From an uncultured archaeon (GTDB taxonomy: Archaea > Asgardarchaeota > Lokiarchaeia > Sigyniarchaeales > SOKP01): a stretch of 38,721 nucleotides of DNA. The notes under the pieces are model-generated. The model was not told the DNA's origin. It did no database searches and was given only the letters and a program-made list of their open reading frames with translations. Every line of letters begins with the position of its first letter. The first letter of the stretch is position 1. Below are positions 17,534 through 26,396 of the stretch, piece after piece. The translations under genes and the position numbers were made by a program. The stretch lies in assembly GCA_964525635.1 (NCBI GenBank), contig CAZGJX010000030.1:1-38721 (forward strand), in the 5' to 3' direction.

Positions 17534-20134
17534 ATGAATACAAATAAAAAAAGAAAAATAGGTTTTTCAATTATTTGCACATTTTTAATAACACTTATAT
17601 TGCCTACATTACCTGTTGCACAAGTCACTAATCCTACTAATCTCAGAGAAGAAACTGTTATAAGCTCAGGTTATTGGAAAAGAGTTCAATGGGGTGGTAA
17701 TCCCTGGGATCCAAATCCTGTTTTTGGATATGCCCTAATGTTCGAACCTTTATTTGGTATGAATACTGTTGATAATGAGATAATTCCTGTTATAGGTACT
17801 TCTTATACTTGGAATGCTGATGGTAGTAAACTTATTATTTCTCTTAATCCTAATGCTAAATTCTCTAATGGTGAAAGTATAACTGCTACAGATGTAATCG
17901 CCAGTTATGAAACAGCAGCTAATCAATATAAATATAAAAGCGATTTTACGAAAATAGTCGATAGTTTTTTGATTATAGATACTAATACTATAAGAATTGA
18001 TTTAAAACCTAGTTTTAATTACAGTCGAAAAATAATAGAATTAATAACTACAGATATCCCAATTTTAGATAAGGATGTGTTAGATCTTGTTAAAGCAGAT
18101 CTATATGTGAGCGGAGAATATGATTATATGAACGGGGATTTATCTTTATGGCAACCTAACTTTTACGATCCAGCATATAATTCCGCCTATAAGGTCTATT
18201 CGGGCCCATATGAACCTTATTATTTAAATACTGATGGTACAGACGAGAGATTGAGATTAAGAGATGATTGGTGGGGATTTGGGAATATTTACCAGGACTT
18301 ACCCAATGCTCCAACTTCCTCTATTGATGGAATACCAAAATATATATCAAATCAAATATTTAATACTAATGAACTTAGAAATGAGGCATTACTTGCTGGT
18401 AATATAGATTTACACTCGACCTATTTCGAAAATGTAGTCTCTGCTTTACAAACTAATGAATACATTAATACATATTATGAAAGAAATCTTAATAAACCAT
18501 ATTTTCTTGGTCTAGGACCTGTTATTTCACTTGTACCAAATCAAATCAAATATCCATTTAATGAAAAATGGATAAGAGATGTTTTTGCTTATTCTATAAA
18601 TTATGATATCTATCCAGATTATTGTTTAGAGGGAGATTGGACTAGAGCAAGCCAAGGGTTCTTATCACCTGATAGTCCATCGCATACAAATGAATATGAT
18701 CCTGCTATCGATGCACAATATCAAATTTCTTATGATCCAACTATGGCTACAAAAATTTTGGAAAAACATTGTAAATGGAATGGTGCATATTGGTTTACAA
18801 GAACAAATCAATCTGATGGAGGAGGTACCCTTATAGGTAATTATGAAATCATTAACGTCCTAGGATGGACTGATATAAATGCAGCTACGGATTTACTAGC
18901 AAATGATTTGTATAGTATTGGTATCCCAACTGTAAGAGTTGATGTTAGTCAAGCTGATTGGGTAATACTAGTCAATGATCGAAATTTTGATTTAGCATTG
19001 CAGAACCAAGGTCCAGATTTACTTAAATCATCATTAAAAGTACTTGATGGTTTAAGAGGTGAACATTTACATAATAAAAATGCATCATCATGGCAAAACT
19101 CAAGTTATAATGATCTTTACAAACAATTTGAAGTTACAGCAAATGATCCTGTAAAAACAGCTTCTATTGTTTCTCAAATGCAAGAGATTTTAGCTAAAGA
19201 GAAACCAGAAATCCCTATTTGTAATAATGCATTTTGGTACCTTTATTCAACACAATATTGGAAAGGATGGCTGAATGTGAATAATCTTTATAATCAACAA
19301 GCAACCGTTTATACAGTCGATACAATGGCAGTAAAAGCACGATTATATCTTAATTTAAGACCATCTAATTCTCCCGATCCTACCCCAACTATACCAGTTC
19401 CACCAAATATTGATTCTCCTACAGATATTGATTATCAAATGGGAGATATAGGTAATTTAATCACATGGTCAGCAACAGATGATAATCCCACTGTTTATAA
19501 AATCACTCAAAATGGACTTTTGGTTTCCACCGGTTCTTGGAGTTCTGGGAATCCAATAACAGTAAATGTTGATGATCGTCCTTCTGGAATCTATATCTAT
19601 ACTTGTATCGTTAATGATGCTGATGATTCATCTAATTCAGATTCTGTCATTTTAACTGTGATTGGTCCACCAGTTATTATTGATAAACCTTCAGATTTTG
19701 AATATCTAGAAGGAGATACTGGTAATTTAATTACTTGGATTGCAACGGATAATAATCCAACAACTTATATAATTACTCGAAATGGTCAAACTATAGATTC
19801 CGGTTCATGGAGTAAGGGTAGTCAAATCAACATCAATGTTGATGATCTAACTGAAGGAACATACACTTTCACTTGTACAGTTTATGATGGAGATGAACAA
19901 ACAGATTCTAACTCTGTTATTGTGACTGTATATACATTTCATAATGGAGATGTAAATCACGATGGGGATGTCAATATTATTGATGCTCTTTTGACAGCTT
20001 ATTACTATGTAGCACTTGATCCTCAACCCTTTTATCCAGAAGAAGCAGATGTAAACAGAGACGGGTCCATTGATATTGTAGATGCAATGTTGATTGCTCA
20101 AGCGTATGTTGGATTGATTGATCTTCCACCATAA
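17534..20134 (+). CDS. Secreted ABC-type family-5 solute-binding protein with a Pro/Thr linker, two Ig-like repeats and a C-terminal dockerin
   Basis: Signal peptide (KKRK then hydrophobic). SBP5 motifs: MFEPLF, AKFSNGESITATDV, SGPY, YPFNEKWIR..AYSIN, MQEILAKEKPEIPI, STQYWKGW. Linker PSNSPDPTPTIP. Dockerin GDVNHDGDVNIIDAL...ADVNRDGSIDIVDAM. Confidence 0.92.
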   Translation: MNTNKKRKIGFSIICTFLITLILPTLPVAQVTNPTNLREETVISSGYWKRVQWGGNPWDPNPVFGYALMFEPLFGMNTVDNEIIPVIGTSYTWNADGSKLIISLNPNAKFSNGESITATDVIASYETAANQYKYKSDFTKIVDSFLIIDTNTIRIDLKPSFNYSRKIIELITTDIPILDKDVLDLVKADLYVSGEYDYMNGDLSLWQPNFYDPAYNSAYKVYSGPYEPYYLNTDGTDERLRLRDDWWGFGNIYQDLPNAPTSSIDGIPKYISNQIFNTNELRNEALLAGNIDLHSTYFENVVSALQTNEYINTYYERNLNKPYFLGLGPVISLVPNQIKYPFNEKWIRDVFAYSINYDIYPDYCLEGDWTRASQGFLSPDSPSHTNEYDPAIDAQYQISYDPTMATKILEKHCKWNGAYWFTRTNQSDGGGTLIGNYEIINVLGWTDINAATDLLANDLYSIGIPTVRVDVSQADWVILVNDRNFDLALQNQGPDLLKSSLKVLDGLRGEHLHNKNASSWQNSSYNDLYKQFEVTANDPVKTASIVSQMQEILAKEKPEIPICNNAFWYLYSTQYWKGWLNVNNLYNQQATVYTVDTMAVKARLYLNLRPSNSPDPTPTIPVPPNIDSPTDIDYQMGDIGNLITWSATDDNPTVYKITQNGLLVSTGSWSSGNPITVNVDDRPSGIYIYTCIVNDADDSSNSDSVILTVIGPPVIIDKPSDFEYLEGDTGNLITWIATDNNPTTYIITRNGQTIDSGSWSKGSQININVDDLTEGTYTFTCTVYDGDEQTDSNSVIVTVYTFHNGDVNHDGDVNIIDALLTAYYYVALDPQPFYPEEADVNRDGSIDIVDAMLIAQAYVGLIDLPP
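19400..19936 (+). repeat. Two tandem Ig/PKD-like repeats of about 89 aa within the SBP gene
   Basis: Repeat 1: P.D..Y..GDIGNLITWSATDDNPTVYKIT.NG...GSW. Repeat 2: GDTGNLITWIATDNNPTTYIIT.NG...GSW. Units start at about 19400 and 19667. Confidence 0.9.
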
Positions 20135-20649: not shown

Positions 20650-22233
20650 TTACCAAACTAAATCATTAATGACTTCTTGCGCTTTTTCTGATACTCTTTT
20701 ACCTAAAATCCTTTTTACGCGAAGATCACTAATGGCTTGCTCAAGTTGAGTATCTAGATTCTTAATTTGATCCATAAGATTTGACTTATCGCCTTCTTTC
20801 TCAACTAAATTAATAACTGGATTATATTTATTCATAAGATCTTCAAGTTTACTCCTAAATTTTTCTTTAACTTTAGTCGATACTATTTTCGAGTTATCAA
20901 CTAAAATAGGAAGGACAGGTACTCTTTTTGTTGTTCTTTTAGTGTTTGGATCTGTAAAATGAAATATAAATATAGGAATCCCAACCACAACATCTTTAGT
21001 TTTTAATTCTATTGTGTAGTTCTTAAGAAATTGTTGTACACCATTCATTTCCTGATCTTTTACATATTCTATATTGTCTAAACAAGCTTGTTTCACTCGT
21101 TTTATAGTAGTCACTATCTCTTCAGCAGATACAGTTTTACTGCTAAGATCACTATGCTTGTTTTCAATCTGCCTTTCGACATCAGCAATTTTTCTCTCTA
21201 AATCAGTAATTCTCATTTGATGCATTTTCTCTATATCTGAAATTTCTCGATCTATATTTCTGTGTAGCTGATTAATTTCATTTTGATATCTATTAATCGA
21301 ATTTCCCAATTCTGCATATCTCATATTTAATTCTTTCATTGCTTCATCAAGTAGAAAAAGCTCCTTTTTATCAACAGCATTTTTTACTCTTCCAATGGAA
21401 TTTTTAAATGAATCAATATTATTTTGAAATTCACCTGTTTTATCATTTATTTTATATTTACCCGATTTAATTAATTCTTCTGGAGTTGCATGCAAGTCTC
21501 TTTCTTTCTCTTGTTGCAATTCTTTATTTAATATGGCGAGTTGTTTTTCCTCTTCACTTGTATCGATCTTTGTATCCCTAAATTTATCAGCTTCTTGAGC
21601 TCCTTTTTTAACCCATTTTTCACACAATGAGATTATTATTTCACTATACTTATCAAGCATTTTTACATCCTTTTGCTCAATAAATTCATATATATCTTGA
21701 ACCATTTTTATCTGATTAACACTTTTAGAAATAGGATCTCCTTCTAATAAGAAATAAGAATTTGAAAAGGAACTTATATTATATTGATTTAGAAAAAAAG
21801 TTTTGAAATAATCAATATCAGCAGCAGTAAATAATGCCTCTTGAATTATTTTTCCTCTATTAAAATTAGAGGATTTACTTAGATGTCTTTTATTATAATT
21901 TTCTAACGATGTCAAAAAAGAAACTGGATCTGCCCCAGTTATTACATTATCTGGTTTTGGAGGAATTTTTTTAAATTTACCCAGATATAATGTTTCCTGT
22001 GTATTTAGAAGATAAGAGCATACGCAAGCACGAGTTTCATTTAAAGGAATCAACCGAACTGGCCAAAAACATGCTGTAATGTGATGAACTTTTCCAAGCT
22101 TTTTTAATTTAACACCATAAATATCAATCAATTCTACTAAACCCATAGCCATTTCATTTAAAAGTGTAGCTAGGGCCCTAGTAGGAATAATGTCCCCTAA
22201 ATTAATTAAATAAGGAATGACTCTATCTACCAT
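20650..22233 (-). CDS. Conserved-looking hypothetical protein with a long central coiled coil between globular termini
   Basis: 527 aa with heptad repeats at about aa 225-400. GGTGA ribosome-binding-like site upstream. No Walker A motif. Confidence 0.85.
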   Translation of the reverse strand: MVDRVIPYLINLGDIIPTRALATLLNEMAMGLVELIDIYGVKLKKLGKVHHITACFWPVRLIPLNETRACVCSYLLNTQETLYLGKFKKIPPKPDNVITGADPVSFLTSLENYNKRHLSKSSNFNRGKIIQEALFTAADIDYFKTFFLNQYNISSFSNSYFLLEGDPISKSVNQIKMVQDIYEFIEQKDVKMLDKYSEIIISLCEKWVKKGAQEADKFRDTKIDTSEEEKQLAILNKELQQEKERDLHATPEELIKSGKYKINDKTGEFQNNIDSFKNSIGRVKNAVDKKELFLLDEAMKELNMRYAELGNSINRYQNEINQLHRNIDREISDIEKMHQMRITDLERKIADVERQIENKHSDLSSKTVSAEEIVTTIKRVKQACLDNIEYVKDQEMNGVQQFLKNYTIELKTKDVVVGIPIFIFHFTDPNTKRTTKRVPVLPILVDNSKIVSTKVKEKFRSKLEDLMNKYNPVINLVEKEGDKSNLMDQIKNLDTQLEQAISDLRVKRILGKRVSEKAQEVINDLVW

Positions 22234-22360
22234 TTTTTGTTATTTCACCTTTGTTATATTATTCTTTAAAAAGGATTAATAATTAAGGTTTTCCTTTTGA
22301 GTTTTTTTGATTAACAAGCTGAATAATAATATTATAATTAATAATTTTTGTGGATATTAA

Positions 22361-22873
22361 TTATTCGGAATTTAATATTTTCAATTTGTCTTTAGGTAGA
22401 TTTGTGAAAAATTCAATTTTATTTTTCTCAATCATCTCCACGTTTAGATAAGATGGATAATAACCTGAGGATTGTAAATTGAATGGAGAGAACACTTGTA
22501 AAAGTTTTTTGGATCTACGAACAAGAAAGCTTATTAAAAGATATTGTGTGAAATCAAATTGACTTAATAATCTTATTGCTTTAAACAATTGTGATAACTT
22601 AACATTGAAAAAAGGTGGATCACATAGAATAATATCAAATTTTTCATCTATCCATACTGGTTTTTTAATATTAAATTTATGAAAACCAGAGATATTAGCA
22701 AATCTTGTATCTATATCTAAAATACTACATTTTAAATGTTGCCTTACACAAGCTTCACCAACTTTAGGTACACATAATATACAAGGATTAGTATATTGCT
22801 TTAAAAATTCAACAAGAATAGATATCGTTTGTTTGTTAAAAAAAAATTGCTCATTTTCATATATTTCATCCAT
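22361..22873 (-). CDS. Stand-alone SAM-dependent amino-methyltransferase resembling the ZCCHC4/EEF1AKMT1(Efm5) family
   Basis: Ordered motifs: EQFFF, CILCVP, ILDIDTRF, FDIILCDPPF, YxPxY, FFTNLP. Confidence 0.75.
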   Translation of the reverse strand: MDEIYENEQFFFNKQTISILVEFLKQYTNPCILCVPKVGEACVRQHLKCSILDIDTRFANISGFHKFNIKKPVWIDEKFDIILCDPPFFNVKLSQLFKAIRLLSQFDFTQYLLISFLVRRSKKLLQVFSPFNLQSSGYYPSYLNVEMIEKNKIEFFTNLPKDKLKILNSE

Positions 22874-22939: not shown

Positions 22940-25561
22940 TTAATCATTGTCTTCTTTATTTTTTATTGGTAACCCAGATGGATAGAGATTTGTTAATTTT
23001 TTAGGTTTTATAACGTATCCTTTTGTCTCCATCTTCTTATATAGCCGCTGAGTGTTATCTTCTAATGAAAACTCCATTATTTCTTGTGAAAGTAAAATAT
23101 ATGAAAAAGCAGTGAAAAATGGAGTTCCCCAAAAAATTACTATTACCATGAAAGTTCCAAATATTATCATTTCTTCTTGGAAAAATCCACTAAAATCTAC
23201 ATTTGAAAGAAATTGGAAAAAAGTTACTAAAGCAGATATTCCCGCTACTCCCTTAATCATTGATTGAGACCATACACTTATCGATTCAACATCTCCTGGT
23301 TTTCTATGTTTTTTTGATTGACGGAAGTATACTATTCCAGCATCATCCAATAAATAATTGCCAGCTATAAAAAAAGAAAATAAAATAAATGATAATATCA
23401 TTGGAAGTATACATAAAAGATTATAACCAACAATAAAATCAAAAAATTCTGTTGAACCAAACCTTGTAAATTTCATTGTATAACCAAGGATCGGAGATAA
23501 AGTATTATATGAATAGAATCCTATTGCAATTGATAGTAATAATGGTAAAATAACTCTTTGGATTTTAATTAACGTTCCAACATCTGTTCTGTTTTCCATA
23601 TCTAGTACAATAATATCATTGTGATATTTCTTTGAAATCTTGAAAAATAAATCACGCAATTTAATAAAAAAGAAAGCAAAATGAGGTGCAAAATGATTAA
23701 ATATAGCAGCTGTTAATGGTAACATTCCATACCATATAATTGAAACTGAAATAAATGCAACTGTAATATCGGTCATACTATATCCAGCAATAAGTATCTG
23801 ATTAAATATATTAATTTGTAAAAGAAATAGGAAAAATGTAATTGACATCAACATAATTGTCATAAAATTGACGAATATCACCAATTTGCTTTTTTTTATT
23901 TTTCTAAAGATTTCTTTTCGTCTTAGATTCAATTTCCTACTATTACGTATCAATAATAATATTCCAATAAAAATAAATGCTACAAATAATATAAAAAGAG
24001 GAATTCCAAATGGAAAGTCAGAAGAAAGCCATACAGCAACAGGGTTTTTAGTAGACAATATGGTAATTCTCTGCCATCCAATAATTAATAAATCCTTTTT
24101 GTTATCGTTATTAAAATCATCGATAGTCATTAAACGATTAACATCAGTATCGGTATCAATTATGACTAAATTATCATTTTTTATTACATTTTTAATGTAA
24201 AATCTTTTAATTTTATTAGGAGAGAGAAAAGGTTGGATTTCCTTAACCAAGACCAGCTCATTAATTTTATCACCATCTAGATCATCATCTAATGCGTAAA
24301 ATCTTATAGGCTGCTCTGTGATTTTTTGATACTCCCAAATGAGATCATTTGTACTTGCATCAATTTTATATACATATATCTCATTATAAACTCTTGTATT
24401 ATTATTTGAAGGGATTTCTTCATAATCGAAATTTCTAATATAAATATAAGCTTCATTAATATCCTCATCATATCCAATTTCCTTTAATTCTAGGCTTTCA
24501 GGTTCATAATTTAGTTGGAAATCAAAAGAATTTAAAAGTGTTCCGTCTATCCCTCTATATATATCAATAATGACATGTGTACCATTTTCTGTTAGAACAA
24601 AGATTTCAAAATTATCATCTGAGTCTAAATCTTTGATAATATCAAAGGACTGTATATTTGATGACATTGAAATATTATAAATTGGATCTGAATAACTTAA
24701 ATTAGCAGTATCTAAAAGAAGTATATTATTATTATCTTTAAATATTAATTGTTCCAATCCATTATGATTATACAACCTAATTTCAGGAATATCTTTTGGA
24801 TTGTTATACAAATTTTTATATTCTATCGTATTTCCAGTATATTTATTATATTTTTTTGTACCATCGATAAAATAGCTAGTTAAATTTACATTGAAAGGAA
24901 CATCAATGGTATTATTAGAGATTTCTAAACAAAAGAAATCTTCAAAGGATTCAGAGAGATCACTCAGACTAACACAATCAATAATTCCATATGTATCAAA
25001 ATTAGCATCTGTTTCGATTTTTGACCCATTATTACCACTTATAATAAAATTGTCAAATTGATCGAAATATATTAATGGTTCTTTATATGGTTTCCCATCA
25101 AACCCATATTTAATAACCCAATTTTCATCAACGGTTGCAACACTAACTAAATAATCCAATGTATTATCACTGTTTATATCTGCAATTGGGAAAACTTTCT
25201 TTACAGGCCCTTCAAATTCTTTATTCCAAATTTTAACTCCATTAATACTATTAAATGCAATAATACCTCCAAATTGAGGATTATTAGCGTGAGTTAATTC
25301 TTCTTCTTCATTTGAATCTAAAACTTCAATATCTAAATAAATAATTATATCATTAGTTCCATCTTTATCAAGATCATCAGCTGGTAAAGCAAAGACATCT
25401 ATTGGATATTGATCTTGAAAATCTGACCAAATCCAACCAGGTGTTGTTTCCATCTGAGTAATGAAAATTATACCTAGTCCTCCAAAAATGAGTAGAGAAA
25501 TAGATATAAGAACTAAATTGACAGGTTCAGATCTTATCTTTTTAAATTTTCGTAAATTCAT
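22940..25561 (-). CDS. Membrane protein with an N-terminal anchor, an extracellular FG-GAP/VCBS-type Ca-binding repeat domain and about 7 C-terminal TM helices
   Basis: Repeats: DDLDKDGTNDII, ADINSDNTLDYL, KDLDSDDNFEIF, DDLDGDKINELV, DDFNNDNKKDLL. Seven hydrophobic segments after about aa 515. Confidence 0.85.
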   Translation of the reverse strand: MNLRKFKKIRSEPVNLVLISISLLIFGGLGIIFITQMETTPGWIWSDFQDQYPIDVFALPADDLDKDGTNDIIIYLDIEVLDSNEEEELTHANNPQFGGIIAFNSINGVKIWNKEFEGPVKKVFPIADINSDNTLDYLVSVATVDENWVIKYGFDGKPYKEPLIYFDQFDNFIISGNNGSKIETDANFDTYGIIDCVSLSDLSESFEDFFCLEISNNTIDVPFNVNLTSYFIDGTKKYNKYTGNTIEYKNLYNNPKDIPEIRLYNHNGLEQLIFKDNNNILLLDTANLSYSDPIYNISMSSNIQSFDIIKDLDSDDNFEIFVLTENGTHVIIDIYRGIDGTLLNSFDFQLNYEPESLELKEIGYDEDINEAYIYIRNFDYEEIPSNNNTRVYNEIYVYKIDASTNDLIWEYQKITEQPIRFYALDDDLDGDKINELVLVKEIQPFLSPNKIKRFYIKNVIKNDNLVIIDTDTDVNRLMTIDDFNNDNKKDLLIIGWQRITILSTKNPVAVWLSSDFPFGIPLFILFVAFIFIGILLLIRNSRKLNLRRKEIFRKIKKSKLVIFVNFMTIMLMSITFFLFLLQINIFNQILIAGYSMTDITVAFISVSIIWYGMLPLTAAIFNHFAPHFAFFFIKLRDLFFKISKKYHNDIIVLDMENRTDVGTLIKIQRVILPLLLSIAIGFYSYNTLSPILGYTMKFTRFGSTEFFDFIVGYNLLCILPMILSFILFSFFIAGNYLLDDAGIVYFRQSKKHRKPGDVESISVWSQSMIKGVAGISALVTFFQFLSNVDFSGFFQEEMIIFGTFMVIVIFWGTPFFTAFSYILLSQEIMEFSLEDNTQRLYKKMETKGYVIKPKKLTNLYPSGLPIKNKEDND

Positions 25562-25859
25562 AATTAAAAATATAGTCTATTAATCTTATTTAATTCTAAG
25601 CACTTACAACTCAAATATAAAAACTTTTAATGTTTTTAATTTTTATAAAAAGTTATAAGGTTTAAATTAAATTATTTGTAATTATCAAAAGAAATAGTAT
25701 CAATTCTTATTTGAATATTTTAATTTAATACTTTATACTGAAAAAAATATAAATAAATCTAAAAGTAAAATATAATTTCATTAATTGAAATATTTTTTCT
25801 CTTTAATTAAGGAATATTTAATTTTAAATAAAAAAGGAAACTAATTGAGGTATTTGAGT

Positions 25860-26396
25860 ATGCACAATGATCACATTGATTATATGTATAAGGTAATATT
25901 AACAGGACCCGGTGCAGTAGGTAAAACTAGTTTACTTCATAGATTTATAACAAATACTTTTCAAACTAATTATAAAATCACAATTGGTGTAGATTTTATG
26001 AGTAAGACTATTGAAATTCACCCAAATAAAAAAGCTAAGATGACAATTTGGGATATCGGAGGACAGGATAGGTTTAAATTTCTCAGACAAAGCTTTTATG
26101 ATGGCGCTCATGGAGCTCTATTAGTATTCGATCTTACAAGAGCTGCAACTTTTTATGAAATGAAAACATGGCTAGGAGAACTCCATCAATCTCTTGGAAT
26201 AAATACTCCATTCATATTAATTGGAAATAAAATGGATTTAATTAGGGACATAGGAGAATGTATAGACTCAAATATAGCAAGGGATTTTGCTCAACGATAT
26301 AATAGTGTTTATATTGAAACATCTGCGAAAACAGGTATTCATGTGGAAAATGCTTTTCTAAGGTTGACTCATATGATGTTGAATAGAAATTTTTGA
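25860..26396 (+). CDS. Rab-like small GTPase (Ras superfamily)
   Basis: G1 GPGAVGKT, G2/RabF1-like TIGVDF, G3 IWDIGGQDRF, FYDGA.GALLVFDLT, G4 GNKMD, G5 ETSAK. No C-terminal Cys motif. ATG at 25860 (GAGGT upstream) preferred over TTG at 25845. Confidence 0.95.
   Translation: MHNDHIDYMYKVILTGPGAVGKTSLLHRFITNTFQTNYKITIGVDFMSKTIEIHPNKKAKMTIWDIGGQDRFKFLRQSFYDGAHGALLVFDLTRAATFYEMKTWLGELHQSLGINTPFILIGNKMDLIRDIGECIDSNIARDFAQRYNSVYIETSAKTGIHVENAFLRLTHMMLNRNF

Follow-up and report, generated by a model that had tools for sequence, protein, structure and literature searches.

A stand-alone PF10237 methyltransferase with a ZCCHC4-like core in a Lokiarchaeia genome, and the RNA-repair setting of its bacterial relatives

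The closest described relatives of the protein considered here belong to the PF10237 family of methyltransferases (MTases), the substrate of which cannot be read from sequence, being an RNA adenine in ZCCHC4 and a protein lysine in EEF1AKMT1. Human ZCCHC4, the 28S rRNA m6A4220 methyltransferase, flanks its target adenine with Y173 and requires GRF, C2H2 and CCHC zinc fingers for activity, its action on RNA being lost without them (PMC6834594). A 2022 survey described ZCCHC4 as confined to Amorphea, with no prokaryotic ancestor traced (PMC8868631). EEF1AKMT1 (N6AMT2), Efm5 in yeast, is the sole proven stand-alone member of the family and trimethylates K79 of eEF1A (PMC10238732), with N6AMT2-like proteins being regarded as protein methylases (PMC8885841). 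The DPPF/Y motif cannot distinguish RNA-adenine from protein-lysine enzymes (PMC6954407, PMC10238732). In addition, DAMT1-3 of the oomycete Phytophthora, PF10237 proteins with DPPY or DPPF, have been reported to make 6mA in DNA (PMC6211444). A further system of relevance is the Rtc operon of RNA repair, represented by rtcBA/rtcR in E. coli and rsr-yrlBA-rtcBA in Salmonella (PMC7790460), into which the accessory gene RlaP may be inserted (PMC12776372).

The window, as the whole analysed stretch of 38,721 nt of Lokiarchaeia DNA is called here, encodes a 170-aa protein matching PF10237 (N6-adenineMlase) with 58 bits against a gathering cut-off of 23.2 (E 1.3e-15), over profile positions 4-152 of 166 (Table 1). 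The motifs QFFF (9-12), ILCVP (32-36), LDIDTRF (52-58), DPPF (85-88), YYPSYLN (138-144) and FTNLP (156-160) follow one another along the translation, in which no GxGxG motif I is found, exactly as the original prediction had read them. The translation, Pfam and AlphaFold agree on a single domain without GRF, C2H2 or CCHC zinc fingers; NCBIfam and PADLOC returned only DPP-motif matches below threshold. This is a real gene with vertical inheritance within its genus, present once in its genome. Homologues in three same-genus genomes are 58-59% identical, dN/dS against these is about 0.2, the flanking genes having the same dS, and GC3 is 16% compared with 17-18% for the neighbours. The closest homologues, at 59-60% identity, are in Promethearchaeota/Lokiarchaeota genomes.

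Table 1. Features of the window and arrangements of repair-linked bacterial loci (MTase, PF10237 methyltransferase)
Feature	Position	Strand	Basis or remark
Stand-alone PF10237 MTase (P0001), 170 aa	22361..22873	-	ATG start; Pfam, AlphaFold, structure search, purifying selection
Cofactor loop Q9-F12 (ZCCHC4 Q172-F175)	22838..22849	-	6UCA alignment, conservation
C34-V-P-K37, glycine-poor substitute for motif I (ZCCHC4 T200-R202)	22763..22774	-	6UCA alignment
L52-F58, with D53/I54 (ZCCHC4 D225/I226)	22700..22720	-	SAH ribose and adenine contacts
Catalytic DPPF 85-88 (ZCCHC4 D276-F279)	22610..22621	-	Invariant; 6UCA alignment
R119-R120 basic pair	22514..22519	-	Conservation, 6UCA alignment
Y142-x-N144, equivalent of regulatory loop (ZCCHC4 Y340/N342)	22442..22450	-	6UCA alignment, conservation
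873-aa membrane protein	22940..25561	-	66 nt upstream of MTase, co-directional
Rab-like GTPase	25845-26396	+	Pfam Ras, 164 bits
527-aa coiled-coil protein	20650..22233	-	Downstream of MTase
Family-5 solute-binding protein with PKD/Ig domains and C-terminal dockerin	17534-20134	+	Pfam
Divergent rtcR, then Ro60/TROVE (rsr), YrlA, rtcB, MTase, rtcA	L035
Ro60 and tRNAs, MTase, rtcA	L040, L051
rtcB, MTase	Chloroflexia loci
tpt1, MTase	L011, L060
tRNA array, vWA protein (possibly Ro60-like), rtcB, DUF6847, MTase-Tpt1 fusion	L178:57-7083		Bacteroidota

The surroundings of the gene in the window offer little by way of partners. The 873-aa protein carries weak FG-GAP-like repeats according to Pfam and its gene is divergent from that of the Rab-like GTPase. 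The three remaining genomes of the genus (L001-L003) have a 239-aa opposite-strand gene without a Pfam family that separates the MTase from the 527-aa gene, and this is missing from the window at 22233-22361. The 873-aa protein, the 527-aa coiled coil and the GTPase were considered as functional partners and rejected, as they recur next to the MTase only within the genus. Rfam yielded no RNA in the window, and a promoter scan gave chance-level results.

Structural comparison places the protein nearest to ZCCHC4. The AlphaFold model (pLDDT 92) retrieved human ZCCHC4 (PDB 6UCA) as the top solved structure in Foldseek (E 5e-9, TM 0.74), and in the VIA structure search with the same model ZCCHC4 reached Z 18.4 (rmsd 2.6 over 164 residues, 23% identity) with the next entry at Z 12.4, ranking 6 Z units over all other solved methylases. 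The ordinary DNA or RsmD-like enzymes named as a possible outcome by the original prediction fall far behind. DNA N6 methylases were absent among the top rows of the fold search, an absence still compatible with an enzyme of that kind. Against the ESM Atlas, clusters of Efm5 and of ZCCHC4 are equal at TM 0.80, and the protein's own, mostly bacterial cluster stands at 0.89. A PDB search with the single window sequence gave no significant match, 6UCA being reached only by the broad family profile, which HMMER aligns to it over profile positions 6-165 (E 4.6e-6); this alignment bears out the ZCCHC4 motif series given in the original prediction. The seven-beta-strand fold, a glycine-poor motif I and DPP[FY] are all present in the window protein as modelled.

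Residues were mapped to their roles in ZCCHC4 (PMC6834594) through the HMMER alignment of the profile to 6UCA. Equivalents of the SAH contacts Q172, F175, D225/I226 and N243 are Q9, F12, D53/I54 and N68 of the window protein, and Y173, DPPF 276-279, Y340 and N342 correspond to F10, 85-88, Y142 and N144. Most of these positions are near-invariant across the family: D53, D55, R57 and F58 are 100% conserved in every group, and Y142 reaches 100% in the Asgard group, in the main bacterial group and in the two eukaryote-type groups. The position of F10 is occupied by Tyr in 92% of bacterial homologues. EEF1AKMT1 has Glu and His at the positions equivalent to LDID-x-R and Tyr340 of ZCCHC4. Two patterns, E-x-x-x-x-Q-[FY]-[FW] at the N terminus and N-E-[FI] at the C terminus, presumably recall EEF1AKMT1. 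The R119-R120 pair is invariant in the prokaryotic subfamily and missing from ZCCHC4 in the alignment, suggesting a possible phosphate contact, and the net charge of the domain in bacteria is approximately neutral. Judged from these residues, the window protein holds a complete catalytic core of the ZCCHC4 type. Together with the Pfam match and the structural searches, this upholds the proposal of a stand-alone prokaryotic PF10237 member with a ZCCHC4 core and no zinc fingers.

The bacterial relatives provide a functional context. An MTase gene was counted as linked when it lay within 400 nt of rtcB, rtcA or tpt1 on the same strand, with partner identities checked by Pfam. Linkage was found at 11 of 62 bacterial genome loci (10/61 without L044, which derives from the unpublished genome G440), at 14 of 80 metagenome loci and at 2/8 loci of an independent, fresh Planctomycetota sample, compared with a chance expectation of about 0.1 linked loci in 62, calculated from genome size and the number of partner copies. 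An unbiased Pfam tally ranks RtcB first upstream (15/97; next family 4) and RtcA first downstream (8/85; next family 2). YrlA and tRNA genes occur within the same repair units (Table 1). The linked RtcBs split into three groups of 27-40% mutual identity, three types of partner are used, and the linked state switches at least 8 times on a tree in which many loci are kin, so the association with repair genes is not a single inherited gene order. About 80% of bacterial loci have no repair context, and none of 12 Asgard loci, the window copy included, adjoins rtcB, rtcA or tpt1; the window genome carries these genes on separate contigs (C119, C50 and C17). At two other loci (L126:4476-6098, L214:655-2148), the MTase is followed by an uncharacterised gene of 280-300 aa and then a ThiF-type gene. 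Prokaryotic PF10237 proteins are already present in databases under automatic names, so that they are in themselves no novelty. In the literature covered, outside of which lies the likeliest source, Burroughs and Aravind (2016), no paper was found that connects the family with Rtc operons, and a prior mention is therefore possible.

In terms of distribution, the species-level genome loci (n=66) comprise 4 archaeal and 62 bacterial ones, the bacterial hosts being Chloroflexota, Planctomycetota, Myxococcota, Abditibacteriota and others, with 34-53% and mostly 43-53% identity to the window protein. Identity is about 30% to stand-alone eukaryote-type proteins and about 20% (17-23%) to ZCCHC4. Among 400 Asgard genomes, 8 contain true members, 7 detected by the family profile and one divergent fusion by Pfam. 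All 8 fall within the order of the host, where the host genus accounts for 4/4 and the remainder are scattered genomes. A further 14 Asgard matches to PF10237 (E about 1e-6) were discarded as other methylases, being partial, mostly confined to the motif region and within frames of 320-500 aa. Sampled bacteria carried the gene in 0/250 Chloroflexota and 9/250 Planctomycetota. On other Lokiarchaeia contigs the MTase occupies differing, unrelated loci, and at L197, L198 and L199 it is inserted between genes which are adjacent in the window's genome, the pattern of a lone gene moving laterally. One of these copies (L197:2949-3464) lies directly after an rpl11-rpl1-rplP0-rpl12 operon, at a site which is empty in the window's genome. 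The distribution is best explained by a compact prokaryotic subfamily of 165-175 aa, rare everywhere and laterally mobile as a single gene.

More remote stand-alone relatives (about 30% identity) occur in a fern, a diatom, a pelagophyte, Panagrolaimus nematodes and giant viruses, the homologues recorded being P0239, P0252, P0250, P0300, P0167, P0273 and P0147 together with L147-L149, and the viruses including Yasminevirus and Fadolivirus. On one IMG/VR contig of 619 kb, rtcB lies 2.7 kb upstream of the MTase copy. A second bacterial subfamily of PF10237 includes Syntrophus, and its domain also forms the end of a 3673-aa NRPS (P0121; L212:3001-14022), following the thioesterase, where it reads as an unusual tailoring domain. 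In a Lokiarchaeia genome (G154), an ORF of at least 925 aa (L186:585-3362) has a divergent PF10237 domain fused between a P-loop kinase and an HD hydrolase, and this is a third prokaryotic type of the domain. Looking specifically for homologues of greater length or with fusions gave none, a weak result given that these fusions surfaced by other routes.

The fold, SAM pocket, DPPF and selection show an intact SAM-dependent amino (N)-methyltransferase core of the ZCCHC4/EEF1AKMT1 fold, in a subfamily that recurs within bacterial RNA-repair units; its target is probably an amine on some component of damaged translation machinery. The reading favoured here, tentatively and with somewhat less than an even chance of being correct, is that these enzymes serve RNA repair in bacteria and act on an RNA adenine. 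SAM would be held in a closed pocket, with Asp85 orienting the amine for methylation and F88 and F10 stacking on the target. The likeliest target would be the N6 position of adenine in a translation RNA that is damaged or has just been repaired (tRNA, Y/YrlA RNA or an rRNA break), presented by the repair partners in place of the zinc fingers which ZCCHC4 requires, and the methyl mark may stabilise the repaired RNA or protect it against re-cleavage. Lokiarchaeia would have gained the gene without the operon and, since rtcB, rtcA and tpt1 of the genome are on other contigs, the window copy may act as a solitary stress-type modifier. An RNA adenine is preferred because of the RNA-end partners, the equivalents of the adenine-flanking aromatic residue and Tyr340 of ZCCHC4, and the added invariant RR pair. 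Against it, gene association names no substrate, the stand-alone form and the TM of 0.80 to Efm5 suit a lysine enzyme equally well, the window and the other Asgard loci as well as most bacterial loci lack a repair context, and the charge is near-neutral. A bolder form, doubtful at present, sees in the subfamily an unrecognised 'modify-after-repair' enzyme that would place m6A on tRNA, Y RNA or rRNA once RtcB, RtcA or Tpt1 has acted on it, and a functional prototype of the eukaryotic rRNA m6A writer.

A close rival, itself somewhat unlikely, is an EEF1AKMT1/Efm5-like protein-lysine methyltransferase co-induced with RNA repair in bacteria, the target of which would be a protein of translation or of repair, such as EF-Tu/aEF-1alpha, a ribosomal stalk protein, or RtcB, RtcA and Tpt1 themselves. 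It stands close because the only proven stand-alone member modifies a lysine, that of eEF1A K79 (PMC10238732), and DPPF/Y is non-discriminating; the small stand-alone domain, the Atlas similarity to Efm5 equal to that of ZCCHC4, and the Lokiarchaeia copy behind the ribosomal protein operon all fit. However, LDID-x-R and Y142 agree with ZCCHC4, the recurrent partners are RNA-end enzymes with no translation factors among them, and the ribosomal placement is a single insert. Methylation of a small molecule or nucleotide (a repair by-product, nucleotide or peptide amine) is improbable: the small domain with its closed pocket, the NRPS fusion in the sister bacterial subfamily and the kinase-HD fusion of the distant Asgard homologue are in keeping with it, but both fusions come from other subfamilies, and that of the window goes with RNA-end enzymes. 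Still less probable is an orphan DNA N6-adenine methyltransferase, for which DPPF, mobile and patchy occurrence, homologues in giant viruses and the 6mA activity reported for Phytophthora PF10237 DAMT proteins (PMC6211444) may be cited. PADLOC, the neighbour Pfam tally and protein domains revealed neither restriction or defence neighbours nor a target-recognition domain, GxGxG/FxGxG motif I is missing, ZCCHC4 outranks the other solved methylases by 6 Z units, and N6AMT2-like proteins are seen as protein methylases (PMC8885841).

Least probable of the readings is that the gene was inherited through Asgard archaea and is ancestral to eukaryotic ZCCHC4/EEF1AKMT1, its product methylating helix 81 of 23S or else aEF-1alpha. 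The Asgard host and the ZCCHC4 fold are in its favour, as is the tree (49 rows, IQ-TREE, LG+C20 PMSF, root assumed, without ZCCHC4 and EEF1AKMT1 sequences) in so far as nine Lokiarchaeia sequences cluster (85/91). This cluster lies within a mainly bacterial assemblage, which a branch of 98/95 parts from a plant, protist and giant-virus clade, and a tenth Asgard copy is placed elsewhere. Nesting among bacteria, which the original prediction had set as the finding that would remove an ancestral interpretation, is therefore what the best tree shows, but AU tests leave other placements unrejected, both for Asgard joined with one or both of the eukaryote-type clades (p 0.06, 0.46 and 0.09) and for bacterial monophyly (p 0.27), in a tree whose composition bias draws low-GC rows together. 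The argument against ancestry of the Asgard gene hence relies on distribution (8/400 genomes, none beyond the host's order), on lone insertion at unrelated loci and on identity (43-53% to bacterial homologues against 17-23% to ZCCHC4), the tree agreeing without proving it. The earlier suggestion that the gene, as an Asgard inheritance, could shed light on how the family arose is accordingly not supported. As a eukaryotic signature the gene does not qualify, having no broad vertical presence in Asgard archaea and being closer to bacterial homologues; it is a displaced copy and no evidence of Asgard ancestry for the eukaryotic enzymes. The idea of helix 81 as target is weakened as well, since on this substrate ZCCHC4 depends on its zinc fingers (PMC6834594); the genome's 23S ends at a contig end before the helix 81 region.

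The weight of the finding is thus carried by the bacterial context and not by the window copy, the recurrent rtcB-MTase-rtcA slot and the Tpt1 fusion pointing to methylation as one of the steps of RNA repair. A small, soluble and well-folded prokaryotic version, as predicted, with a full active site makes the question of the substrate easily testable. In comparison with human ZCCHC4, the window protein keeps the equivalents of the cofactor loop, D225/I226, N243, DPPF and Y340, but is only 17-23% identical, has shorter loops and an added RR motif, and is prokaryotic and patchy in occurrence; as it has no zinc fingers, without which ZCCHC4 is inactive, it is not an orthologue and helix 81 is no safe guess. 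With EEF1AKMT1 and Efm5 it shares PF10237, stand-alone size, DPP[YF] and the Atlas TM of 0.80, differing in its ZCCHC4-type LDID-x-R and Tyr142 and in the RNA-repair context of its bacterial relatives. The oomycete DAMT1-3 have the PF10237 domain and DPPY/DPPF in common with it, but are eukaryotic and reported as DNA 6mA enzymes. Among the Rtc operons, bacterial homologues fill the slot of RlaP, rtcB-[ ]-rtcA, with rtcR, Ro60 and YrlA upstream (L035, L108-L110), whereas the window copy stands outside any such unit.
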